DNA from: a virus
Lineage: Duplodnaviria; Heunggongvirae; Uroviricota; Caudoviricetes
Strand: one strand, 5' to 3'
DNA length: 44,845 nt
IMG/VR virus record: IMGVR_UViG_3300045988_181891
A model generated the notes under the pieces. That model was given only the letters and a program-made list of their open reading frames with translations. It was not told the origin of the DNA and searched no databases. The position numbers and the translations under genes are program-made. This document shows, in pieces, positions 1,213 through 43,073 of this stretch (its first letter is position 1; each line of letters opens with the position of its first letter).

Positions 1213-1288
1213 CGCGGCGTGGAGCAGTTGGTAGCTCGCCAGGCTCATAACCTGGAGGTCGCATGTTCGAGTCTTGCCGCCGCAACCA
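1213..1288 (+). tRNA. tRNA-Met: tRNA-Met (anticodon CAT), initiator-type
   Basis: 76-nt cloverleaf folded by hand: acceptor CGCGGCG/CGCCGCA with C1-A72 mismatch, U8, D-loop AGTTGGTA, anticodon loop CTCATAA, T-loop TTCGAGT, encoded CCA; near-identical in layout to E. coli tRNA-fMet. Confidence 0.85.
1270..1286 (+). repeat. attL core, 17-bp direct repeat AGTCTTGCCGCCGCAAC within the tRNA 3' end
   Basis: Identical 17-mer at 44538..44554; imperfect similarity continues for about 55 bp downstream of both copies (atcgggta..aacattct..atccgatt). Confidence 0.8.
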
Positions 1289-1404: not shown

Positions 1405-2568
1405 ATGACTGCAAAAGAAATTGATTTTTTGAGCTCGCGTGAAATAGTAGGTTTCACGCTGCCTGTGTTGCATACCAAGGGCGGTTACTGGTATGTTGAC
1501 TTTACTGCCTTTGACCCTGTTTCGGGTCGGATGAAGCGCAAGAAATATATGCTTAATAGGTACAAGACTGACCACAAGAAGCGTATGATGGGTACCTTGC
1601 TTATCCACAATATCACGGCAAAATTGACCGCTGGATGGAATCCTTGGGTGAATGCCGACAAGTCGAGACAATTCACCGAAATACCAATTATCTTTAGTCG
1701 TTATCGTGATTATATTAAGTCGATGACCGACAAAAAGTCGATGAAGGAAAAGACCTCTATCGACTACCTCAGCCGCCTCAAGACTCTGGAGTCTTTCATC
1801 ACTGAGTGCAAGAGTGTCAAATATGCCTATCAGATTGACCGTGCCTTCGCCATCGACTTCTTAGACCACCTGATGTATGACCGTGATGTGAGTGCTACCA
1901 CAAGAAACAACTATCGCTCTTGGCTTGTCTCCTTCGGCACTTGGCTTATGGATAGAAAATATATCAGCGAGAACCCTGCCATCGACATCAGAAACATCGC
2001 TCAGAAGGAGAAGTTCAGAGACCCTTTGACCGAGGGCGCGCTTAAGAAGCTGAAGACTTATCTCTATGATAACAACAGACATTTTCTCTTGGCTTGCCTC
2101 TTTGAATATTATACCTTTATCCGACCGAATGAGTTGACGCAGATAAGAATCAAAGATGTGTCGATTGCTGACCAGACGGTCTTTATCAGTTCTGCCATCA
2201 GCAAGAACCGTAAGGACGGACTTGTGGCATTGAACGATGAAATCTTGAAGCTCATGATAGAGCAGAAGATATTTGAGCATCCGGGACATTGTTTTATCTT
2301 TGGCAAGGGGTTGAAGCCTGGTGAGGAGCGAGCACCTTATAACCAACTGAGAGTAGAGTGGGGCAAGATGCGAGATGCTATTGGGTTTCCGAAGGAGTAT
2401 CAGTTTTATAGCCTGAAGGACACTGGCATCAGGGATTTGGCGAACGCACAGGGTATCGTGGTCGCCAAGGATCAGGCACGCCACTCTGATATATCTGTGA
2501 CGAATCGATATATCAAGAACCAGATGAAAGTGAACGAGGAGACCAAGCACTTCAAAGGTGGGCTTTAG
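1405..2568 (+). CDS. int: Tyrosine recombinase (phage integrase), Bacteroidota-type with N-terminal arm-binding domain
   Basis: ATG at 1405; C-terminal catalytic region HxxR...Y (ARHSDISVTNRYI); position directly beside the tRNA attachment site. Confidence 0.9.
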   Translation: MTAKEIDFLSSREIVGFTLPVLHTKGGYWYVDFTAFDPVSGRMKRKKYMLNRYKTDHKKRMMGTLLIHNITAKLTAGWNPWVNADKSRQFTEIPIIFSRYRDYIKSMTDKKSMKEKTSIDYLSRLKTLESFITECKSVKYAYQIDRAFAIDFLDHLMYDRDVSATTRNNYRSWLVSFGTWLMDRKYISENPAIDIRNIAQKEKFRDPLTEGALKKLKTYLYDNNRHFLLACLFEYYTFIRPNELTQIRIKDVSIADQTVFISSAISKNRKDGLVALNDEILKLMIEQKIFEHPGHCFIFGKGLKPGEERAPYNQLRVEWGKMRDAIGFPKEYQFYSLKDTGIRDLANAQGIVVAKDQARHSDISVTNRYIKNQMKVNEETKHFKGGL

Positions 2569-2632: not shown

Positions 2633-4524
2633 ATCATATAAAAATATCCTGTATAGATAGGCTCAATCTGGTCATCCTTGACCTCCATCTCTATTTTTTC
2701 GCATACGAATTTTTTGTTGTGTATGATGTATGTGTGAGATGGGTCAGGGATGGTATCAGATTGAAATTTTACCTGAAGGCAGTTTTTGTTGTCTATCTTG
2801 AGACCGCTGTCGTGGAGCTCACCCAAACAGGTTCCTGCTTGCCAAGCCTTGTTTAGGGATAGGGAAGCCATCAGAACGGTTGGAAACGTGCCAATATTGC
2901 CAGGATCGAGCAACTCCATCCTATACATGGAATTGATGCGGCTGTCAGTCATGAACTGCGGCCATCTGGACTTCTCCCCTACCCATGAGACGTTGCCATT
3001 GAGTGGGTGTTCGTATTTTTGAACTTTGCCAGGCACTATGAAAAACACATTCATGCACTCCTGGTCATCCTCGGAATCATCCAAGGTGGACTCATCATCG
3101 ATGGCATCCTGTATGGAGACGTAGTTGTAGCCATCCTCGTCTGTGTCGCTCTCTTTGGCTTCGGCTTCTTTGTCGTTTGGCATAGACAGGAGGCAGCGCC
3201 ATTCGCTGTGTTTACCCTCAAAAAGAAAAGACCTAAAGCTAACATTTTCCACGACCTGTGCTGCTGGGGATATGTTGAGGTCTGTGTAATCATCGGAGGA
3301 GTTATCCCTTATCAGTGGCGACCAGACACCAGCCAACTGCCAGCTCTTGTTGCCGTCGGTATCCTCGACATATATATAATAATCGCTGCCCAGATGACGG
3401 ATGATGGTGGTGCGCTTCTTCTTCTCGGACCATCCACTGGTAGTGGCAGGAAACTGAAAGTTGGTACCAACGGCTGTCTCGAACGAATCGACTATATCGA
3501 AATTATCAAAAACTTTTTTGGGAATGACTTCGTAATCACCTCTGTTGGCTGAGTCGCCTAAGTTGTACTGCAGGTTGGCTGTCGATGAGGTTGAGAACGA
3601 ACCATCGGCATCGTAGTCGGTGGTGTACTCGTCGAGTGTCTCTATCTCTACGGAGTCGGCGGATGATAGCTCTGAGGACTTGATGACCTGACAAGTCTTT
3701 TTGATGTCGTCGAAGTATATGGTGGCGTTGAAGAGCTTGCGGAACTCCTCGATGAAGGTGTAGCTAGTCCAATGAGGAAGGGCACGGCGAAGCTCTAGGG
3801 TCTTGAAGGCGGAGGCGATGTAGAGCAAGTTCCATGGAGAAACATCGAGGTCGTTGCGTGTGAGGGTGTAGCCCTCGTAGGCGATGACTCGCTTGAAGAT
3901 GTACATCAGGTTGGGCTGCACGGCGACGTTGCTGATGTATGGATCTTTGCTGCCTATGAAATTGCCCGTGCGGTCAACGCCCACGAAATTGGCTATCATG
4001 TCGTTGGTCTCGTCTCTGACTGGCATGAAGCACCACTTGCCCTGCTCGCCCAGAAACTTGCTCTGGTCGGCGACGAGCCTATAGACGGATTGAACCTTGG
4101 GGATGTTTTTCCAGCCCTGTGAAAAACCTTTATCTACCGTATAGCCTGGTGCGGATGCCTTGCCGAAGTCTATCTCGTCGATGTAGTGCTTGGTCATCTT
4201 GTCGTTGAACTTGATGCGAGACTTGCCGCCCACTATCTGAAGCTTTATCTCAGAGTCGGTGACGCTGATGATGGTACCCACGCCAGAGAGTACCAGGCGA
4301 CCGCTCACGTAAAGCTTGCAATCGTTGTAGGTCTGGGTGGATTTGGAGACATCGAAGCGGCTCACGTTGTGGAAAACTCGGCGGTTGGGCATTATTGCCA
4401 TGGGGAAATTGATGTCGTAGGAGTATTCGCCATCGTCGGTGACGTATTGGTTGGCGTATGTGAGCTTGATGGATTGGCTGGCAGCCGGATAGGCTGCCAT
4501 GCCATTGATGATGCATGTTATCAT
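2626..4524 (-). CDS. Phage tail protein directly downstream of the tape measure gene (candidate distal tail or receptor-binding protein)
   Basis: 632-aa ORF with ATG at 4524, 33 nt after the TMP stop; call by gene order only. Confidence 0.5.
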   Translation of the reverse strand: MITCIINGMAAYPAASQSIKLTYANQYVTDDGEYSYDINFPMAIMPNRRVFHNVSRFDVSKSTQTYNDCKLYVSGRLVLSGVGTIISVTDSEIKLQIVGGKSRIKFNDKMTKHYIDEIDFGKASAPGYTVDKGFSQGWKNIPKVQSVYRLVADQSKFLGEQGKWCFMPVRDETNDMIANFVGVDRTGNFIGSKDPYISNVAVQPNLMYIFKRVIAYEGYTLTRNDLDVSPWNLLYIASAFKTLELRRALPHWTSYTFIEEFRKLFNATIYFDDIKKTCQVIKSSELSSADSVEIETLDEYTTDYDADGSFSTSSTANLQYNLGDSANRGDYEVIPKKVFDNFDIVDSFETAVGTNFQFPATTSGWSEKKKRTTIIRHLGSDYYIYVEDTDGNKSWQLAGVWSPLIRDNSSDDYTDLNISPAAQVVENVSFRSFLFEGKHSEWRCLLSMPNDKEAEAKESDTDEDGYNYVSIQDAIDDESTLDDSEDDQECMNVFFIVPGKVQKYEHPLNGNVSWVGEKSRWPQFMTDSRINSMYRMELLDPGNIGTFPTVLMASLSLNKAWQAGTCLGELHDSGLKIDNKNCLQVKFQSDTIPDPSHTYIIHNKKFVCEKIEMEVKDDQIEPIYTGYFYMMS

Positions 4525-4557
4525 AAACTTATCATAAATGAGGTTTGATGAAAACCG

Positions 4558-7500
4558 TTATTTGTTTGACTTCATTTTTTGATATTGGCTCCATTGGCGG
4601 TCGAAGCCATCGGGGCCGGTGATGACCACGTATGACTTGATGCCAGCGTTGAGCTGCTCGTTGAGTCTGTCGATGGTGGTATGCACGCTATCGAGGGATG
4701 CGCCCATCTGCTCGGTGTCGCCACCTGAGACGTTGACCACTGGGGCGACCACGGCTGCGCTGCCTGTGCCCATGGCACGGCTCACGTCTTGGGCGGTGAG
4801 CGAGGCGACCGTGTTGTTGCGCTGCGCCATATCGATGAGCTGCAGGGCAGGGAGGAGCTGAGGATTGTTGACGGCGTTGTGGTTGGCGACGAACTCGCCA
4901 GCGTGAACCACGCCAGCCTCTTTCTTGTAATTGCCAGGACCAGTGAAACCACCCTCGTAATAGCCAGCCGCCTCTGCCTGGTGCTGCTTTTTGATTGTTG
5001 CTATCTGGAGCATGCCCGCTGCGGTGGCGAGACCTGCGGCGATAGGACCAAGGATGTGACCCACCACTGGGATGGCTGCGGCTGATGAGTAGGCGTTGAT
5101 GGCAGCCATGGCGGTTGAAGCTATGGCTTGTGCGATCTCTATCTTCATCGCCTTTTTGTTGGCCTTGCTCTTGGCTGCAGCCACCTCTTTGTCTCGCTTC
5201 GCCTCGAGACGCTTTTTCTTGGCTGAGTTGTTGCCAGCGGCAGAAATCTGCTTATCGTAGTTTTTCTCAATCTTGGCGACCTCTAGGTCTGAGCATGCCT
5301 GGGAGTAGGCGGAGGCAGCGCCCATCATCGTGTTGATGCTGCTGAAGGCAGCGCCAGCGATGGAGGCTATCTCTTGATAGGTCTCTTTGTTCATCTGCTT
5401 TTTGGCATCCTGGTATTGCTGCTCGCTGATTTTATCCTCGTCTCGAAGATTTTTGAGGTTATCGTTGACCATCTTTTGCTGTTGGATGGCTGCGATGGCA
5501 CCACCAGCGATTGTGGCGAGGTTGTCGCTGCCCATGGCATTGTTGCTGTCACCATTGCCCTTGGTCATCTTTTTGGCGGTGTCGAGGGCGGTGTTGGCAT
5601 CCTCCTTGCGCTGCTCATCGGCGGTTGGCTTGTATGAGGCGTATTTGTTGGCGATGCCCATCTTTGTGCGCTGGTATTCCTCCTCTCTGATGAGACCTGC
5701 CTTGTAGATGGCTTCGAGTCCCTGCAGATCTAGCTGCATCTGCTCTTCGTTGCCGAGCTTGCCGTATTCTTGGCGCAGCTGAAGGAGTTGCTCGTCGTGC
5801 TGCTTCTGAAGGTCGTATTTGCGTTGCTGTTGGGTCAGCTCTCGCTCTTTCTCGATCTGGGCATACTCGTCAGATGAGGAGAGGTAGAGGGCTTGCTTTT
5901 TGTTGAGATAGTCCTGGTATGAGAGGAAGAGAGCCTCGTTGACGGCATCCTCATTGTGATAGAGGTTGGAGTCTTTGTTGTAGTAATCGGCATTGAGCTT
6001 CATTTCTTTTTTCTGTCGCTCGGTCTCCAGGGCTTCGAGGTCGGCGGTCTGCTTTTTCTCGTAGTCGGCGGCGATATTCTCTTTCTCAGCGTTCAATCGC
6101 TTGAACTCTTCGCTCTCTGCCTCGCCATACTTTTTGAGGATGTCGAGGCGAGCCTGAAGCCCCTGTTCTTTGATATTCTTCATCTTCTCGTTGTATTCGG
6201 CGAGTCGAATCTGACCTGTAGCGTAGAGGGTCTTGGCATCGAGCTCTTCGGCTTGGTTGGCTTTCTTTGCATCGTCTAGCTCTTTTTTCATGTCAGCCTT
6301 GCGCTTAGCCTCTGCCTTGCGAGCGGCAGCCTCACGTTTCTTTTTCTCCTTTTCGGCAGCTTTGCGCTCTTTCTCGGTCATGGTATGACCAGAGGAAGGG
6401 GTGGTGTGTGTCTCTGTAGTTGCGCTATTGTTTAGTAAATTCTTCTTTACAGTCTTGTTGTACTGTTTCTGCAAATTTACGTTTTTCTCTAATTGCTGAT
6501 TATAGAAATTCTCTTCAGCATTGACTTGCTTTTGCAGGCTTAGGTTTGCCTGTAGTCTTTGCGTATGAACTTGCTTTTGCTTCTCGTTACTCTTCAGTGC
6601 CTCGTTTTGTTCGATGAGCTGACCTGTCCATCCATCAGCCACGGCATTGCTCTCATATTGCTTAGGATGAGCCTTGCGCTCAGCATCGACAGCCTTCAGC
6701 GAATATCGTATGCGGCTTTCTTTTTGTTTGAGTTCCAGTTTCTTTTTATTGATTTCCACCTTGCGCTCATAGATGGCTTCTGCCATGGCAGCATTTTCTA
6801 GCTCCTTGATGTAGTTTTGGATGGCAATCTGGTTGTCGTTATACAACTTGCCCTCTTTGGAGATAGAGGCGTGATATTCTGGGACGAGCTTTATCATATT
6901 TGCGATAGCTTGCTTTCGCTCGTCAACGGTATAGGCATTGGAGTGGATAACCTTGTTGAGCATATCGACCTTGTTGCGCTCATCGAGGGTAGCATCAGAC
7001 ACCTTTTTGGCGAGGCTGGCTTGAGCCTCTGCCACTGCTCTGTTGTTTTTAGCCTCTTGCGTGTTGTTGCGCATCGCCTCGTTGTAAGATGTTATGGCTT
7101 TGTATGCCCCATAGGCAGCCACGCCCACCACGGTGATGACTGTGGCGAGGGCAGCCCATGGATTGGTGAGACTTGCTAGGCGTGCTGCCCTCATCACCAC
7201 GATGTAGCCCTGTATGCCTTTTGTGAGATAAGCCCATGTGGCTTGCAGTGCCACTAAGGCAGCACGCAAGAGTGTAGATGTAGCGGTATAAGCTTTATCG
7301 ACAGCTGAAGCGTATTGTACGGCGGCTGTTTTAATCTTAATGGCGATGGTCTCCTTGTACCAGAGAGCAGTACAAACAGCGATGGCTGTTGACAGCACGG
7401 CTATTTGTTTTGCATAGGTGACGGTGAAGGTGATGAGCGTGGACATGACCTTTATGGTCAGACTGAATGATGTGATGCCATATTTCATGGCAGGGATGAG

Positions 7501-11914: not shown

Positions 11915-13558
11915 TCACGTGAATTTATAGAACTTCTTTTTGAATTTATTGTGAAGCTCTGCGACCACGGTGGAGAAGGGTAGCTCATCACGACAGAAGT
12001 CGTTGAGGGCTTGGTCTATCAAGATCTTGGAGCCTGTATAGAGGTAGTGCTCCAGAGGTTGCCATACCTCGGTGCCGTCTGGCTCCAGGTGGTCGATGAT
12101 GCGATAGCGTAGGGAGAGGCGCTTCTTGGGCACCTCTTTGGTGACCATGTGGGTGGAGCCGTCCGGGGCGGTCTCCTCTTGCTGGATGGTCTCCTTCTCT
12201 ATCACCGAGTCATCGACCTTGTAGTCTATCACTTGAACGAGGAACTTGTTCTCGTCCTGACCCTCACGGCAGATGATGTCCTCGATGGACTGCTGCTGTG
12301 ATTTCTCCATACCGTCAAAAGGCACGCGCGCACGGCGAGCCTTGACGAGTTTACCGAATCTTTCCATACCGATTTTCTTATATAAGTTTTTAGAGTTTGC
12401 GTGGATGCCCAGACCTAGGCGAGAGGCTGCCTTGAGCTGTATCTGGCGGTCTGTGAAGCCCGCCTTGCGTAAGTTGGCGATCTGTCTGCAGAGGTCGTGC
12501 TTGAACCGCTTGCGCAACAGGGCGTGGTCGGCGTAGATGATCTGACCGCATAAGTCGATGCCATCGCAGGTGCGGTGGATACCCCAAGACTTATTGATGG
12601 ATAGGTGCCAGTCACGGGCGAGGTGCATCACGGCAAGCTCTGCCATCAGCCTGAGGAACACCTTATCCTCGTGGAGGATGTAGATGTTGTCCATGAAGCG
12701 GTAATAATGGCGAAGACCTTGGCGGCAGAAGCGCTCGAACCTATCGTTGAGCGACTTCACTCCCCCGCATAGCAGTTGAGCTTGCTGCTGAGTGCGACAG
12801 GTAACGAGCATGTCGCTCACGTAGCGAGCCTGCCAGTAACGGAACTTGTCGGTGTCTTGGAGAATGTCGAAGCATCGGAGTGCCAGGTAATCGAAGCGGG
12901 CGAGGAAGAGCTGACCCAAGAGTTGGGCGAGCTTGACGCCGAGCACGATGCCTGGATTGAAGCTATCGACCACCTCGTCGATGAAGGCGAGGAGCTTGCG
13001 GTCTTTGATCTTGCGGCGATATTCACTTTTGAGAAGAGCGTGGTCTATGCTCTGAAAATAATGGTGAATATCCATGGGCAAGCAGTAGAAGGTATCTTGC
13101 TGTGGCGAGTTGAAGATGTCTCGCTTGACAAGATTATAGAAATAATGGGTGCCCTTGCCCTTGGAACCAGCCGGACTGTGGCTGTAGAGTGTCTTGCGAA
13201 GGTTATCCTCTACAGGTTGCAGGGCAGCGTGCTGGATGACGTGGTCGATAACGGGCAGCTTGTTGACTTGGCGATGTTTTGGATAGTCGATATCTTTGGC
13301 GACATAGGCTGAGGTATGCCAAGTTTGTTGGGTGTAAGCATCGAGCATGCGTCCGATGTTATGGTCTAGGTTTGCCTCGAATTTTTGGACCGCACGGCGA
13401 GACATCTTTTGTCGGGCGTAGTCATAGAATGCCCGACGAAAGTTGTCTAGTGTCTCGACCTGTAGCGATATGTTGCCAAACCTTTTCATAAGCGGTGTAA
13501 TGTCTGTGTTGAACGGTGTATAAACTGTGTATAGTCTGAATCGTCTGCTTTTGTACAC
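11915..13558 (-). CDS. DGR reverse transcriptase-like protein with non-canonical motif C
   Basis: RT motifs recognised by eye: HVIQHAALQPV, SPAGSKGKGTHY, LPMDIHHYFQSIDH, GVKLAQLLGQLFL; sits just downstream of the template repeat; ORF-track start 13558 is GTG, first in-frame ATG is at 13489. Confidence 0.8.
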   Translation of the reverse strand: MYKSRRFRLYTVYTPFNTDITPLMKRFGNISLQVETLDNFRRAFYDYARQKMSRRAVQKFEANLDHNIGRMLDAYTQQTWHTSAYVAKDIDYPKHRQVNKLPVIDHVIQHAALQPVEDNLRKTLYSHSPAGSKGKGTHYFYNLVKRDIFNSPQQDTFYCLPMDIHHYFQSIDHALLKSEYRRKIKDRKLLAFIDEVVDSFNPGIVLGVKLAQLLGQLFLARFDYLALRCFDILQDTDKFRYWQARYVSDMLVTCRTQQQAQLLCGGVKSLNDRFERFCRQGLRHYYRFMDNIYILHEDKVFLRLMAELAVMHLARDWHLSINKSWGIHRTCDGIDLCGQIIYADHALLRKRFKHDLCRQIANLRKAGFTDRQIQLKAASRLGLGIHANSKNLYKKIGMERFGKLVKARRARVPFDGMEKSQQQSIEDIICREGQDENKFLVQVIDYKVDDSVIEKETIQQEETAPDGSTHMVTKEVPKKRLSLRYRIIDHLEPDGTEVWQPLEHYLYTGSKILIDQALNDFCRDELPFSTVVAELHNKFKKKFYKFT

Positions 13559-13697
13559 TTGATAACCTTCGACCGGATGACCGTGTTGTCATCATCTACC
13601 AGCTGTCTTATTAATGTGTATGTATCGCCATGGGGCGAGGATTGACCCTGTAATCTCGAAGTGGGAGCAAACGACCCACGAAGAGATATGTCTGTAA

Positions 13698-29507: not shown

Positions 29508-30191
29508 TTATAGCTTTCCTTTGTCGTGGTAGCTGTAGAAGCCATCCTCAGCCAAGATGATATGGTCCATCAAGAAAAGTCTCATCACCTCGCACGCCTT
29601 GGCTATCTTCTGCGTGAGCATATCGTCCGCCTTGCTCGGCTGCGTGCTGTTCGATGGGTGGTTGTGTGCCACGGCGATGATGGTTGCATTGTTGAGCACG
29701 GCTTCTTTCATTATCAGTCGAACGTCCACCGCTGTCTCGGTGATGCCTCCCTCGCTGAGCTTGGTGCACTTTATCAGCCTAAAGTTTTGGTTCATCAGCA
29801 CTACCCAAAAGCCCTCTGTCTCATTGCAGCCTATCATTGGGCGAAGATAGTTGTAGAGTGCCAGGCTGCTGCCTAGGTCGGTGTTTCTCGCTACCTTTTC
29901 CATTTGGTAGCGTCTGCCTAGCTCGATGGCTGCCTGTAGGGCTATCGCCTTGCAGTCTCCAATTCCTGGTACCACTTCCAGGTCTTCTATTCTCGCCTTG
30001 CCGATGTTGCGAAGCGAGTTGCCCATGATGTTATAAATCTGTCGTGCCTGCTCTTGGCTGTCCTTGGTACCTGCCCCTCTGTTGATTACCAAAGAAATCA
30101 AGTCAACGTTGGTAAGGGTGTCGAAACCTTGGTTATAGGCTCTGTACTGCGGTCTCTCCTCCATACAAAGATTGTTATAATTTTGTCTCAT
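29508..30191 (-). CDS. radC: RadC-like JAB/MPN domain protein
   Basis: Signature AHNHPSNSTQPSKADDMLTQ (HNHPSG..PS..D motif) and N-terminal helix-hairpin-helix segment VPGIGDCKAIALQAAIELGRR. Confidence 0.75.
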   Translation of the reverse strand: MRQNYNNLCMEERPQYRAYNQGFDTLTNVDLISLVINRGAGTKDSQEQARQIYNIMGNSLRNIGKARIEDLEVVPGIGDCKAIALQAAIELGRRYQMEKVARNTDLGSSLALYNYLRPMIGCNETEGFWVVLMNQNFRLIKCTKLSEGGITETAVDVRLIMKEAVLNNATIIAVAHNHPSNSTQPSKADDMLTQKIAKACEVMRLFLMDHIILAEDGFYSYHDKGKL

Positions 30192-37194: not shown

Positions 37195-38220
37195 TTATGC
37201 AAACTGATTTAAAACATCCAACACTTGATCTGAGCAGAAATCCTCGACCTTGGTGTCATCGACAGCAGTGTGCGTGTCGCCACCAGGCTCTCCCTCCAGA
37301 TCCTTCACTTTATCCTTCAGGTCATCTCTCTCCTTTTCGAGATTCTTGACCTTAGTCTCTAACTCCTTCTTCTCGTCCTTGACCTTCTGAAGCTCTGTGT
37401 CTTTGTCGGTCACGGCCTTGGAGTCGGCAGCGATCTTATCCTCCAGTTTCTGCATCTGCTCCTGTGAGATTGTGCAGTTCTTTGCGGAATCTTCTGCCTC
37501 AATGCCCTCGATATTGAGGACATTGTTGATGTGAGTCCATTTTTTGATCATATTAATAATTTTATTTTGTGATTTATCTTTGCCGAATAATCGGTCGATG
37601 ATGCTTGGCTTTTTATCATACCAGGAGTTAACAACCTCTGGGAGAACAGGAAGGTTGTTGTACTTGATGAAGTCTTGCGTCTGCTCGGTGATGTCGGCAG
37701 GCTTGCCATCCATGGCTTCATCGACGAGACCCAGTTCGATGCACTCATCGACGGTGTGCCACATCGCTTCGGACATCACCTTGACGATGTCCTCGTGCTT
37801 CTTGCCCGAGCGATCGCAGTAAACGTTGGCGATGATGTTGTCGATTTTCTGCTGGTTCTCTTGCTGTTTTTGAAGTTGCTCGATGAGCGAGCCTATCTGC
37901 TCCTCGTTGAGCGCAGACCACACAAACTGCTCGGTAGAGCACTTGTGTACCAGGAGCAAGCTATATTTGCTCATGCGAATCTTGCTGGCACCCATCGCAC
38001 AGATGGTGGCAGCAGAGGCAGAGAAGCCCGCCTGGAAGTCAACGGTCACGTCGCCATGGGACTTGAACATCTGACAGATGGCGAGACCTGCGGAGACCTC
38101 GCCACCCAAGGAGTCGATGGCAACATCGACGTGCTTATCTTTGTTGGCCTTAAGAACATCGCGAACCATGAGCTTGGTCCACGAGCCAATATATCCTGTG
38201 ATAGAAATTTGGTACTTCAT
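37195..38220 (-). CDS. ClpP-family prohead protease with C-terminal coiled-coil (scaffold-like) extension
   Basis: ClpP signature IDSLGGEVSAGLAI and GFSASAATICAMGASKIRMSKYSLLLVHK; C-terminal about 100 aa is K/E-rich coiled coil. Confidence 0.8.
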   Translation of the reverse strand: MKYQISITGYIGSWTKLMVRDVLKANKDKHVDVAIDSLGGEVSAGLAICQMFKSHGDVTVDFQAGFSASAATICAMGASKIRMSKYSLLLVHKCSTEQFVWSALNEEQIGSLIEQLQKQQENQQKIDNIIANVYCDRSGKKHEDIVKVMSEAMWHTVDECIELGLVDEAMDGKPADITEQTQDFIKYNNLPVLPEVVNSWYDKKPSIIDRLFGKDKSQNKIINMIKKWTHINNVLNIEGIEAEDSAKNCTISQEQMQKLEDKIAADSKAVTDKDTELQKVKDEKKELETKVKNLEKERDDLKDKVKDLEGEPGGDTHTAVDDTKVEDFCSDQVLDVLNQFA

Positions 38221-39364: not shown

Positions 39365-39384
39365 ATAGCTATGCAATTTTCGTG

Positions 39385-39392
39385 CAAAGATA
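39385..39392 (-). promoter_or_regulatory. -7 promoter box TAtcTTTG (minus strand)
   Basis: Plus strand reads caaagata. Confidence 0.45.
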
Positions 39393-39504
39393 CAAAGAAA
39401 ATTTGAAATAACTAACGATAATCGGTAAAAACTAACTTTTATCAGTAAATTTGGTGTGATATAATTTCGTCCGAAAAGTTTGTATTTTTGTATCGTACAA
39501 ACAA

Positions 39505-39760
39505 GGCTCTGTAACTAGCTGATAATCAATACTATTTTTGTGATACAATTTTCTGATACAGAAATTGTAACTCTTTAGCTTTTGTAACTTGGGGTTTTGT
39601 CGAGGTCGAAGACCTGTAGGAGAAGGGGCTTGTTACAAACTTGAAAAACTTTGTAACCGAGTTGTAACGCAACTTTGTAAACATCGGCATGGCGGCTTAA
39701 CTCACTCTTTTTTAGTTATTTACCTCTTTTGCTAACATTATGTTACAGAGTTACAAAGGA
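39505..39760. repeat. Iteron-like array of TTGTAAC heptamers (candidate replication origin)
   Basis: Direct copies at 39565, 39582, 39651 and 39662, variant TTGTAAA at 39676, inverted copies GTTACA(A) at 39632, 39742 and 39750; AT-rich, non-coding, beside the primase gene. Confidence 0.5.
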
Positions 39761-39902
39761 TTTGTATAAAATAAAAGAAAGGGGTGTGGGGAAAACGATG
39801 GCACGGGGCGTGAAGGAGGTTAGAAAAGGCCCATCGAGACACCCAGGACACCCCCATTGGCCAATGGAGGGGTAGCGAGACGAAACATCGCCCATGGCAA
39901 CG

Positions 39903-39937
39903 AAAAAAGGGAGCGACGGCCAATGCGCATCGCTCCC
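39903..39937 (-). terminator. Rho-independent terminator (minus strand) after the primase gene
   Basis: 8-bp stem GGGAGCGA / TCGCTCCC with 13-nt loop, followed on the minus strand by TTTTTT. Confidence 0.5.
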
Positions 39938-40069
39938 TCGTAACATGGGAAAAGAATTATAAATCAGCAAAAATCTGCCTATGAAATCAGCCCTCGTCTG
40001 CTTGCAAAAATAGTGAAAAATTGCTTGAAAATTTAGCCGAAAATATTTGCATAATTCAGATATTTTTTG

Positions 40070-40077
40070 TACCTTTG
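40070..40077 (+). promoter_or_regulatory. Plus-strand -7 promoter box TAccTTTG pointing antisense into the primase gene 3' end
   Basis: GTACCTTTGCAC 12-mer identical to the tRNA promoter; TTTG at the expected -33 spacing (40046..40049). Confidence 0.3.
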
Positions 40078-40118: not shown

Positions 40119-43073
40119 CTAGAAAGGTTTATCACTATCTTTATCTACCTTGCTCCAGTCAATGGTAGATTGATATTCACCCCCAGCTGCAGGGACATCA
40201 GCCTTGGCAGCTTGTTTATCCTCTTTTTTATCATCACTCTTCTTGCTTCGGAGATAGATCATCTCGACAGGGCTGCCGTCTGGGTTAGCTGGATCGCGTC
40301 TGATGATGCGGTGCTGGCTGTTGCAGAGATCAGCTGGGTTCAGCTCTTGGATGTATGGACACAGCTCGACGAAGGCTCTGAGCTTTTTGGTGAAGCTCTG
40401 TGTGGTCGCCTTGTTGATGCCTGAGAACTGCTTGAAGTCATTGAACGCACGCTCTCTCACGATAAATGTATCGAGTCGCTCGCTCTCTTCTGAGAAGTAG
40501 GATGCAGCCCAGTCTTCGAAGTTGACACCCATGTCGGCCTTGAACTTGCGCTTGATGATGTTATCCATCGGTGGCATGATCTTGATAGGTTCGCCAGCCA
40601 AGGAGAGATAGAAACGACAGCACTGCAGGAAAAAGTTGATGTCAGCATTCCACTCATCCTCAGTGTATGTCTTTGAGAAGAGATCTTCGTCGAAGTCATC
40701 ACGGATGCTTCGGGTCTCTTGGTAATCATTCTCCTCTGTGCGCTGATGGTAATAGTCGGAGAACACCATATAGAGCAGTCTCGCCTCTGAGGAAGGGTCG
40801 AAGTCTGCCGGCACGTAGTTGGTGGTGAAGGCAATCTTCGGGCTATCCTCGAAAGGAATTGTGAAGCTCTGGTTGTTCTTTGGGTTGACTGTCATATCTG
40901 AAGTAATGTTATCGTAAAATAAACCTGTGTTGAGATAGCGGTCACAGTCATCGAGGAGCAGCATCTGGGTGTGCTGTGTCACCTGATCGAAGACGTGTGG
41001 GTTGTCCATCAGCTTAGGGTTGCGTCCGGAAAGCTTGACTGTTTTCATCAGCAGTGAAAGCGTCTTGAAGAAGAAACTCTTACCGGAACGGCCGTTGCAC
41101 TCGTTGTTTTCACCAATCTTGTTGTCCATCGCCATCGGAGCCCAAGCCCTGGATGGTGCCTTGTAATGATGGAGCATGTAGCCGAAGGTGAAAATCTTGT
41201 TTATCAAGTTCTGCTTTTGCTCTTGTATCTCGTTGTCGGCAAGCCCTTCGCCAGCGATGTCGAAGAGGTGTGCCTTGTGGTATGCCTCTTTCTCCTCGAT
41301 GCTCTTGTCCTCAAAAGCATACTCTAGCTCTTTGCGCCAGTAGGTGCGAGAGGCGTTGATGAGATAGCCGAAGAAGTGGGACTTCACGTTCTTGACCTCG
41401 ATGTCGAACTTCGGCCTGCCATCCTCGTCGATGGTTCGTGTGATGGAGAACATGTCATCCAACTTCTTGAAGTTGTGGTTGATGACATTCTCTTGCCAAA
41501 CATAGTTTTTGAGCGAGCTGCCCTCACGCTGGTACTCGTTTAGTCCATCTTTGGTGACCTCGACGCTGACACGAGGGAAGAAGAACAACTGCGAGTGGTT
41601 GGTGTAGCTGGTGAAGTCTAGCGTAATCTCTTGGAGCGAGTCGAGCGCCGATGCCGACAGCTTTGGCGTGTTGAGCACCAAGTTAAGGATGTCACGCTTC
41701 TCAGCTCTCTCGATGACCCATTGGCGGCAGAACTCACGGATGTCTCTCGTGGTGATGAGCTTGACGATGTTGCCCGTGATGCGAACATATTTGGTGATGG
41801 TCGAGTTGTCATCGTGCAAGGTATAGAAACCATTGAGACGAAGAAAATTGTAGAGGCACGCCGTGTCGATGTAGTGGTCCCAGGTGTTAGCCTTTTTGTT
41901 GAGCTTGCTCACCCAAAATCGGGCTGGCATCGCCAGTGTCATGAGGTTGCGGAAGTCTTTGCGAGTATTGCGCAGCTCCATCCAGTCTCGCAGGTCTTTG
42001 CGCCCCTTGCCACGGTTGTCGTGGTAGGTGCGAAGCCAAGAAGGCAACCATATCGTATGGATGTCGATGAAGCGCAGGGCAAGCTCTGTGCCCTTGGCGA
42101 TGCCCGTCTCGTCGATGTCGGGTATATTGTAGAGCACCTCGACATACTTCATAATCTCTCGGTACTCCTCGTCGCTGAGCTTGTAGGTCTCGGAGTTGAA
42201 CCATAACGGGTTGTAGCCCATGGAACGGCAGCAGAGACTGTCACGCTCGCCACTGCAGATGAAAGCCTCGGGAAGTTTCTTCTCCTTGTAAGGCTTGGAC
42301 TCGTCTGTGTTGGTCTTGTTGTACTCAGCCTCTTCACGGCGGTTGAACTCGTGATAGGCAGCCTTCAGCTCAGCTAGGCCATTGATGTATTGCTTAGGCT
42401 TGATGCCGTCTGGGGTGTAAGAGAATCGCCACTGCTTTTGGTAGTTGAGAGGCTCATATATCTTGTAGAACTTAACCTCAGGCTTGTCGCCTTCAGCTGG
42501 GCGAACCAAGCACTCACGCATAAAGATAGGGTAGTGCTCGTTGCTGTGCTTAATCTTGACCTTGCGGTCTTTGACGTATCCTATCCACTTGGCGGAATGC
42601 CAGTTGAGTGCATCGACGTGCTCTTGCTTGACGTTTGGACCCAGTACCTTCAGTTCATCCTCGGTGAACTTCTCGTTCAGCTCGAAAGGTCTGGTACCAT
42701 CTTTCTCGTTGATGGTGGCATCACGCTCTGTGAATGTAGGCTTGTTGACCTCTTTTTTGAGTTCATCGCTAACGTTGTATTCGGAAGCCAGTCTCAGGAT
42801 GGCATCAGGAAAGCGGTCGATGCACTTCTCTCTCATGTAGAGGTCGATAGGTGACTCGGCAGAGCCGTCGCCGCCGAAGTCAGTCACTCGCCAGCAGTCT
42901 TTGAACTTTTTGAGACTGCAGGAAGGTGTTTTCTCATTGCGGATGGCAAAGTGCTTTTTAGGCGTGCCAGTCGTGCAATATTTCTGGACGCATTCTTTTG
43001 CGTCCGGGTATAGTGAGATGATGATGTCGAGACCATCATCTGTAGCTTGATAAATTTGTTCTGCTTTGATCAT
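40119..43073 (-). CDS. DNA primase-helicase (Toprim domain plus P-loop NTPase; P4/D5/VirE-like)
   Basis: Toprim motifs CSGERD and DIDETG; Walker A GRSGKS and Walker B LLLDDCD; ATG at 43073 (ORF-track start 43103 is TTG). Confidence 0.75.
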   Translation of the reverse strand: MIKAEQIYQATDDGLDIIISLYPDAKECVQKYCTTGTPKKHFAIRNEKTPSCSLKKFKDCWRVTDFGGDGSAESPIDLYMREKCIDRFPDAILRLASEYNVSDELKKEVNKPTFTERDATINEKDGTRPFELNEKFTEDELKVLGPNVKQEHVDALNWHSAKWIGYVKDRKVKIKHSNEHYPIFMRECLVRPAEGDKPEVKFYKIYEPLNYQKQWRFSYTPDGIKPKQYINGLAELKAAYHEFNRREEAEYNKTNTDESKPYKEKKLPEAFICSGERDSLCCRSMGYNPLWFNSETYKLSDEEYREIMKYVEVLYNIPDIDETGIAKGTELALRFIDIHTIWLPSWLRTYHDNRGKGRKDLRDWMELRNTRKDFRNLMTLAMPARFWVSKLNKKANTWDHYIDTACLYNFLRLNGFYTLHDDNSTITKYVRITGNIVKLITTRDIREFCRQWVIERAEKRDILNLVLNTPKLSASALDSLQEITLDFTSYTNHSQLFFFPRVSVEVTKDGLNEYQREGSSLKNYVWQENVINHNFKKLDDMFSITRTIDEDGRPKFDIEVKNVKSHFFGYLINASRTYWRKELEYAFEDKSIEEKEAYHKAHLFDIAGEGLADNEIQEQKQNLINKIFTFGYMLHHYKAPSRAWAPMAMDNKIGENNECNGRSGKSFFFKTLSLLMKTVKLSGRNPKLMDNPHVFDQVTQHTQMLLLDDCDRYLNTGLFYDNITSDMTVNPKNNQSFTIPFEDSPKIAFTTNYVPADFDPSSEARLLYMVFSDYYHQRTEENDYQETRSIRDDFDEDLFSKTYTEDEWNADINFFLQCCRFYLSLAGEPIKIMPPMDNIIKRKFKADMGVNFEDWAASYFSEESERLDTFIVRERAFNDFKQFSGINKATTQSFTKKLRAFVELCPYIQELNPADLCNSQHRIIRRDPANPDGSPVEMIYLRSKKSDDKKEDKQAAKADVPAAGGEYQSTIDWSKVDKDSDKPF

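Follow-up and report, generated by a model that had tools for sequence, protein, structure and literature searches.

In P4, the alpha protein reportedly binds short iterons at ori and crr, and the type I iterons are short repeats, some direct and some inverted, scattered across several hundred bp outside coding sequence. The GAGGC pentamers recognised by SV40 large T and the sites of papillomavirus E1 are likewise short head-to-head words, accompanied by an A/T tract and associated with the assembly of an SF3 ring. P4 alpha combines primase, SF3 helicase and winged helix in one chain, and the candidate origin-binding domain of the pRN1 protein ORF904 has been matched to the structures of RFX and P4 alpha (PMC2777425). 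In pRN1, the gene is followed by a terminator and then by the origin, where a poorly conserved segment lies between well-conserved flanks (PMC4234260).

Here we analysed a stretch of 44,845 nucleotides (hereafter, the window) in which an array of TTGTAAC repeats close to a primase-helicase gene had been proposed as an origin of replication. The array is similar to P4 ori and crr in that its repeats are 7-8 bp long, occur in both orientations and are spread through a non-coding region of a few hundred bp. The window holds a near-complete temperate phage whose host type is Segatella (Prevotella) copri and whose genes are nearly all on the - strand. Its tyrosine integrase gene adjoins a tRNA-Met, and this site is the probable left end of the prophage and its attachment site; tail genes are present, a ClpP-like protease is encoded among the head genes, and a cI-like HTH gene lies at the far end of the window. 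An Rfam RT-17 RNA and a reverse-transcriptase gene constitute a diversity-generating retroelement, and the Bacteroides phage BT-TP2 likewise carries one. Metagenome-assembled genomes of S. copri and many IMG/VR contigs contain near copies of the phage, and the closest cultured relatives are BT-TP2 and, more distantly, the marine Polaribacter phage Leef_1. Human-gut Prevotella/Segatella and Bacteroides very commonly carry prophages of this group, with their primase-helicase. We found no replication origin for BT-TP2 or Leef_1 in the literature, and none is known to have been described for the phage group or for its primase-helicase family; the type of element is itself a familiar one.

The repeat array and its flanking elements

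A gap of 754 bp separates the stop codon of the 984-aa primase-helicase gene from the ATG of p198, and the array is located in it (coordinates of all features are collected in the table). The original prediction had counted five direct and three inverted repeats, and this count is exact for the hexamer TGTAAC/GTTACA, which occurs at 39510, 39566, 39583, 39652 and 39663 on the + strand and at 39632, 39742 and 39750 on the - strand. Six exact TTGTAAC heptamers are found in 39505-39760 (+ strand at 39565, 39582, 39651 and 39662; - strand at 39632 and 39750), with the predicted spacings of 17 bp (39565 to 39582) and 11 bp (39651 to 39662) between adjacent copies. When the near-variants TTGTATC (39489, +; 39542 and 39555, -), TTGTAAA (39675, +) and TTGTTAC (39630, +) are included, the array comprises about 13 sites in both orientations, from approximately 39489 to 39755 (~270 bp). 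A near-palindrome, CTGATAATCA (CTGATTATCAG in relatives), is located at 39519-39528, in the promoter-proximal part of the array.

Homopolymers aside, TGTAAC is the top clustering 6-mer of the window, with 8 of its 15 copies in the 256 bp of 39505-39760 (Poisson P ~1e-16). Dinucleotide shuffles of the intergenic region alone gave a mean of 0.28-0.42 copies and a maximum of 3-5, and none of 2000 reached 8. For the heptamer, the whole window contains 10 copies against 3.4 +/- 1.9 expected, a number that 0 of 100 shuffles attained, and 6 of these 10 copies lie within 39565-39756. The prediction had been made to depend on the heptamer being more frequent than the local base composition would allow, and the repeats proved to be far above that expectation. 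It could be argued that the array has no specific function and is a chance or low-complexity cluster, a structured non-coding RNA or a small ORF, as the region is A+T-rich and the repeat contains TTTG, a common Bacteroidetes promoter word. Against this, which we consider extremely unlikely, stand the local shuffles, the lineage-specific repeat cores of more than 150 loci (next section), the lack of an Rfam match in the array region at gathering threshold or at E <= 1, the folding of the 524-nt region, which was not above that of shuffles (z -1.26), and the presence of sites on both strands. Both orientations, no Rfam match and no excess folding together point to an element that acts at the DNA level and is bound by protein.

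No tRNA is present at the array. DnaA boxes are missing from the surrounding 6 kb and show no excess in the window, and the GC skew has no inflection at the array, two observations that do not favour an origin; the skew is monotonic, because all genes are on one strand, and hence uninformative. A sigma-70 scan is uninformative in this phylum.

On the primase side, the terminator of the original prediction is real, with a hairpin of -32.7 kcal/mol (z = -6.3) and a T-run (39903-39908, UUUUUU) after the stem; in relatives, a hairpin and T-run of other sequence occupy the same place as the early-operon terminator. Between terminator and array, a pyrimidine tract contains the invariant box CCCCACACCCC (GGGGTGTGGGG on the + strand, 39781-39791), situated 25-30 bp ahead of the first repeat pair. 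This box, of general form CCCC(G)ACACCCC, is kept in the window clade, in other Prevotella/Bacteroides lineages and in Leef_1, though the repeat core changes. At the opposite end of the array lies a 43-nt block which is at least 95% conserved in the window clade and contains TGATATAAT and TTTCGTCCGAAAA, and whose core TTTTCGGACGAAATTATATCA is discernible in other clades. The block is held in the most A+T-rich stretch (39380-39580, 22-35% G+C), which is also the promoter region, and we consider it a candidate unwinding or loading region.

The Bacteroidetes sigma-A promoter has the consensus TTTG ... TAnnTTTG. Beyond the array, where the promoter of the next operon had been anticipated, we found a TAtcTTTG box on the - strand with no clear TTTG at -33 in the window, and in most lineages examined a TAnnTTTG box stands 28-48 nt ahead of the p198 start codon. 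The tandem repeat pair was also considered as a TAnnTTTG promoter box and was rejected, as it fits some lineages only. Just beyond the primase stop lies a second promoter-like element, well formed and of Bacteroidetes type, whose antisense orientation directs it towards the hypervariable 3' end of the primase gene. This element is at least 95% conserved in 45 distinct intergenic sequences of the window clade, and the L049/L052/L054/L088 clade has a TAccTTTG/TAtcTTTG box at its position. The antisense element and the late promoter region are the two arms of an imperfect inverted repeat of 54 nt (I1), and in several clades, that of the window among them, they make up an outward-facing pair bracketing the array. 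The antisense element could produce an antisense RNA or aid the opening of an origin. A 23-nt tandem duplication (TGCTTGCAAAAATAGTGAAAAAT / TGCTTGAAAATTTAGCCGAAAAT) was observed at 39999-40044, between primase stop and terminator, and the ~85-bp stretch around it is absent from most of the window clade.

Table. Coordinates of the array, its neighbours and other phage features in the window
Feature	Position	Strand	Remarks
tRNA-Met	1213-1288	+	
Tyrosine integrase	1405-2568	+	adjoins tRNA-Met
Reverse-transcriptase gene	11915-13558	-	phrog_1423, E 2e-52
Rfam RT-17 RNA	13541-13642	-	59.9 bits; overlaps start of reverse-transcriptase gene
ClpP-like protease	37195-38220		among head genes
p198, 194 aa	38780..39364	-	first gene of head operon
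Late (head) operon promoter, -7 box TAtcTTTG	39385..39392	-	21-28 nt before p198 ATG
Conserved 43-nt block	39455..39497		+ strand TGTGATATAATTTCGTCCGAAAAGTTTGTATTTTTGTATCGTA; directly after last repeat
Array main body	39489..39681		TGTAAC sites and variants; repeat positions are conserved columns in window clade
Head-to-head pair GTTACAAACTT gaaa AACTTTGTAAC	39632-39657		in array main body
Tandem direct repeat pair TTTGTAAC tc TGTAAC	39742..39757	-	first array element in gene direction
Pyrimidine tract with invariant CCCCACACCCC box	39761..39795	-	TTTTATACAAA after box
Early (primase) operon intrinsic terminator	39903..39937	-	stem 39909-39916 / 39930-39937
Antisense promoter-like element (TTTG, 20 nt, TAccTTTG)	40046..40077	+	just 3' of primase stop
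Primase-helicase gene, 984 aa	40119..43073	-	ATG at 43073; stop 40119-40121
Primase-helicase C-terminal domain, residues 834-984	40122..40574	-	predicted winged helix and acidic tail ending ..DKPF

Conservation of the module across related phages

Blastn of the intergenic region against phage records gave no match, BT-TP2 included, and despite this the intergenic DNA of BT-TP2 has the same layout and motif array. Comparisons were therefore anchored on proteins, and 80 viral and 30 genomic loci were collected with the primase protein as anchor. The module is present in more than 150 related loci, as far as Leef_1, and thus the array was indeed recovered in syntenic relatives, a point on which the original prediction had also staked itself. 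In loci with 88-100% primase identity, 5-10 copies of TGTAAC are concentrated within 300 bp on the downstream side of the primase gene, and the hexamer is nearly absent elsewhere; the array is the top 7-mer cluster of the locus in 74 of 86 loci.

Groups without TGTAAC have another word at the same positions. The repeat core is TTGTGAT in the L057 group, TTGTGAC in L094/L110, TTGTC[A/T]AC in L097, TTGTAAT in L053/L054, TTGTAAACA in L050/L077/L095, TTGTTAC in L092 and L099-L105, and TTGTATC in L078, and among distant loci the words are GGTTGTAAC (L166), TGTGGTAGG (L168/L170), TTTGTGCGC (L164) and, in at least 13 copies, TTTGTAATC (Leef_1). Read in gene direction, the order of the elements is constant: the terminator is followed by the pyrimidine tract with its CCCC(G)ACACCCC box, the tandem repeat pair, an A-/purine-rich stretch of ~50 nt, 2-3 reversed copies and a forward one placed head-to-head, more reversed copies, the conserved block, the TAnnTTTG box and p198. 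Every lineage examined has, at this same place, a tandem pair built from its own motif, and an inverted pair around an A/T-rich spacer of 10-12 nt is a recurrent feature of the centre of the array.

The distance from the primase gene to the array is far less constant, since 0.4-5.6 kb of variable genes can intervene. Accessory genes amounting to 1.4-4 kb separate the two in L099, L101, L103, L105, L098, L078 and the L150-L167 group, and in Leef_1 the distance is 5.6 kb, whereas no lineage examined has a gene between array and p198, and the array is always directly upstream of the latter. Adjacency to the primase gene, on which the original prediction had leaned, therefore loses its force as an argument for an origin: 1.5-5.6 kb intervene in distant relatives, and the constant neighbour is p198. 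Insertions at the 3' end of the early operon, upstream of the terminator, would preserve an ancestral order of terminator, origin and promoter, and the variable distance is in this sense compatible with an origin. In L166, the gene directly upstream of the array (4369-5598) encodes a 409-aa VapE-like SF3 NTPase (PF05272, E 5e-19) and not the 984-aa protein. The module formed by array and p198 may, this locus suggests, pair with different helicase genes, and we count the presence of an SF3 helicase gene beside the L166 array in favour of an origin.

This pattern of linkage is the main argument for the chief rival reading, in which the array controls the late (head) operon in cis. Its repeats would serve a phage regulator (p198 at its own promoter, or another protein) as operators or enhancers that time late expression, with no part in starting replication, a reading that we regard as possible and rather doubtful. 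It agrees with the inheritance of terminator, box, array, promoter and p198 as a unit from gut Bacteroidales phages to Leef_1, and with an array that always stays next to p198, even where the primase gene is as much as 5.6 kb distant. p198 is the conserved first gene of the head operon across Bacteroidota siphophages (the L174 copy is at 29520-29993). Its model is confident (pLDDT 84) and has no known-fold match, and the one structural match, in BFVD, is the uncharacterised Leef_1 protein gp39. There is a weak resemblance between its C-terminal part and DNA-binding domains of three helices, and in BT-TP2 the homologue carries the annotation 'transcriptional regulator'; p198 is possibly DNA-binding. 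Against regulation of this kind, ~13 sites over 270 bp would be large for a simple operator, and the weightier objections come from the co-variation described in the next section.

The position of the array at the start of the head-gene block could also indicate a packaging recognition site, with cosB- or pac-like sites for a small terminase at the head of the morphogenesis operon. Repeats in both orientations recall the R sites of lambda cosB. Leef_1, in addition, has been reported with cohesive 3' ends (PMC8776804). We nevertheless judge a packaging role very unlikely: the large terminase of BT-TP2 (gp17) is encoded ~8 kb downstream of the array, as are the small genes just upstream of it, p198 has no small-terminase similarity, and the start of the Leef_1 record, which may be its cos end, is ~8 kb from the array. 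Moreover, the repeat type follows the primase domain, with late genes 97-98% identical across the swap that we describe below.

Covariation of the repeats with the primase C-terminal domain

No other replication initiator gene was recognised among the window ORFs scanned, and the primase-helicase would therefore need an origin or assembly sites. By eye, its sequence shows the Toprim-like motifs FICSGERD and NIPDIDETG, a Walker A (GRSGKS) and a Walker B (LLLDDCD). It has 67% identity to BT-TP2 gp6 and 36% to a Leef_1 protein annotated 'DNA primase/TOPRIM', and it belongs to a family of more than 1000 homologues, with single 90%-identity clusters of up to 6355 member sequences, which is named 'hypothetical protein' wherever a source gives a name. 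The helicase part matched one Pfam family, DUF5906, with E 9e-5 and a score of 23.5 bits that falls short of the 27.6 cut-off; otherwise Pfam gave nothing at E <= 0.01 and NCBIfam nothing at E <= 0.1, and there was no sequence match in the PDB, even by profile search. By the P4-family primase C-terminal, D5_N / Pox_D5 and Toprim models, the protein does not fall among the P4 alpha-type sequences.

The last 150 residues, modelled from an alignment (pLDDT 78), are arranged as helix-helix-strand-helix-helix-strand-wing-strand, with the origin-binding domain of P4 alpha and RFX among the best structural matches. According to this model, the C-terminal domain is a winged helix of origin-binding type, and we propose it as the reader of the repeats. 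The extreme C-terminus (40122-40190, - strand) is an acidic tail with a terminal aromatic residue (..DSDKPF, ..NEAF, ..EKPF) in nearly all aligned homologues, recalling the partner-binding tails of SSB and T7 gp4.

Two neighbouring proteins are candidate readers, the primase-helicase with its winged helix and p198, and to choose between them we relied on the clade L049-L056 / L077 / L088 / L095 / L097. Its members are 83-99% identical in the primase body, and the C-terminal domain has 29-66% identity between different domain clusters; the DNA-binding-like region of p198 is nearly invariant, and the repeat spectrum tracks the C-terminal-domain cluster, with TTTGTAAT in cluster 0, TTTGTAAACA in cluster 1, mixed repeats in cluster 2 and ten uniform copies of TTTGTAAC in cluster 3. 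The repeat type does not go with p198, contrary to what an operator read by p198 would lead one to expect: p198 is 98% identical behind both TTTGTAAT and TTTGTAAACA arrays, and the p198 tree groups L054, L090 and L077 on one side and L053, L095 and L055 on the other, so that each p198 background has both repeat types and the tree is discordant with repeat type. Regulation of the late operon would therefore need a reader other than p198, or a p198 that reads the invariant TTTGT part only.

Recombination events within the clade narrow the choice. L053 and L095, which have different repeat types, share 95-100% identity in the helicase and 97-98% in the sequence that starts with p198; all that separates them is one cassette of ~1.1 kb, from about -430 to +700 relative to the primase stop, which contains the C-terminal domain and the array. 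The same cassette swap separates L054 and L077, in a second background. The only coding sequence exchanged along with the array is that of the primase C-terminal domain, a further point against control of the late operon by another regulator. The non-coding patch between the diverged domain and the array is mostly 85-87% identical in L052 and L054 (68-87% across windows of the alignment) and, taking this pair together with L051 and L053, mostly 70-95% with a few windows lower; domain and array are therefore two separate diverged patches and not a single bad alignment. The early ORFs of L054 are 81-97% identical to those of L051, which has the other repeat type, and 44-90% identical to those of L053, which has the same type, and no early ORF tracks the repeat motif.

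Partial Mantel tests on 27 lineage representatives, a type of test known to be liberal, gave a correlation between motif-spectrum distance and C-terminal-domain distance of r = 0.45 (p = 0.0005) with p198 and primase-body distance removed, and of r ~0 between motif and either p198 or primase body when domain distance was removed. Since the C-terminal domain and the array are physically close in most lineages, part of the co-variation could be due to linkage. In the Bacteroides-type p198 family, p198 residues and the primase domain both split between the TTGTAAC and TTGTTAC groups; the difference in p198 would suit late-operon control, and because both proteins split with the motif this family does not discriminate between the two readers. 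Taken together, these comparisons of sequence provide good, though indirect, evidence that winged helix and repeats are a matched pair.

A candidate origin and its relation to known systems

We consider that the array is a P4-like iteron replication origin read by the winged helix of the primase-helicase, and assign to this reading a probability of about 0.6. The primase-linked iteron origin of the original prediction thus finds partial support, on different grounds: the type of element, bound by protein, and the partner protein, with its winged helix, co-variation and co-recombination, support it, while the reasoning from adjacency does not. Binding of the repeats by the winged helix is what we infer from fold similarity in the model and from co-variation and co-recombination in the sequences. 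That the sites serve an origin is suggested by a helicase-primase with a winged helix of its own, by the precedents of P4 and pRN1, and by the A+T-rich DNA with its 43-nt block.

In the mechanism that we propose, the early operon, presumably expressed first, would yield the 984-aa protein, whose gene is seen in the window, and the winged helix would recognise the ~13 TTGTAAC-type sites over ~270 bp, including the tandem and head-to-head pairs. Many bound copies would then nucleate helicase rings and lead to the opening of the A+T-rich stretch at 39380-39580; to judge from the domain make-up, the SF3 helicase would unwind the DNA and the Toprim domain would prime synthesis for the host polymerase. 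Domain and sites must match in such a scheme and would therefore evolve and move between phages as one cassette. A matched domain and origin would also explain the hypervariable end of the primase gene, as an incompatibility-like diversification. The candidate origin and its swappable domain would provide a testable model of how replication starts in these phages, and a possible basis for Segatella/Prevotella replicons and tools.

One feature goes beyond this textbook picture, namely the constant association of the array with the late promoter. Why an origin should stay linked to the p198 promoter is not obvious, which counts against our reading, and the strict coupling is just as suggestive of an array that acts on the late promoter or depends on it. 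Its fixed place directly upstream of that promoter may hint, speculatively, at an interaction with late transcription. A dual-purpose switch across Bacteroidota siphophages can thus be envisaged, in which the origin, read by the winged helix, is welded to the late promoter and the CCCCACACCCC box and, in several clades, flanked by the outward-facing promoters, and either initiator assembly or the first forks would license the head operon, or promoter firing would open the origin. We think such a switch unlikely; it would explain why no insertions occur between array and p198 while the primase gene drifts by kilobases.

Compared with known systems, the primase-helicase would resemble P4 alpha (PDB 1ka8) in that a single polypeptide, as judged here from motifs and a model, combines a primase of Toprim type with an SF3 helicase and ends in a winged helix. 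It differs from P4 in having no detectable sequence relationship, a Bacteroidota host, a cluster tied to a late promoter, and one repeat cluster where P4 has two (ori and crr). With pRN1 it shares the layout of gene, terminator and origin and a winged helix matched to the same RFX and P4 alpha structures; however, pRN1 has a 100-nt stem-loop without iterons and a primase of archaeo-eukaryotic type, whereas the present locus has a repeat array with no significant structure. The specificity modules of lambdoid phages (the N-terminal domain of O with the ori iterons) and of the iteron plasmids with P1 RepA, R6K pi or F RepE use mostly direct iterons of 17-22 bp and initiators that lack helicase function, in contrast to sites of 7-8 bp in mixed orientation whose putative initiator is the helicase-primase itself. 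The conserved head-to-head pair in the centre of the array is reminiscent of SV40 and papillomavirus, which are eukaryotic systems with another origin-binding fold and a core origin of ~64 bp as against the 270-bp array. Most likely, the element serves as an iteron-type origin in Bacteroidota phages whose primase-helicase family is similar to P4 alpha in architecture and unrelated to it in sequence.
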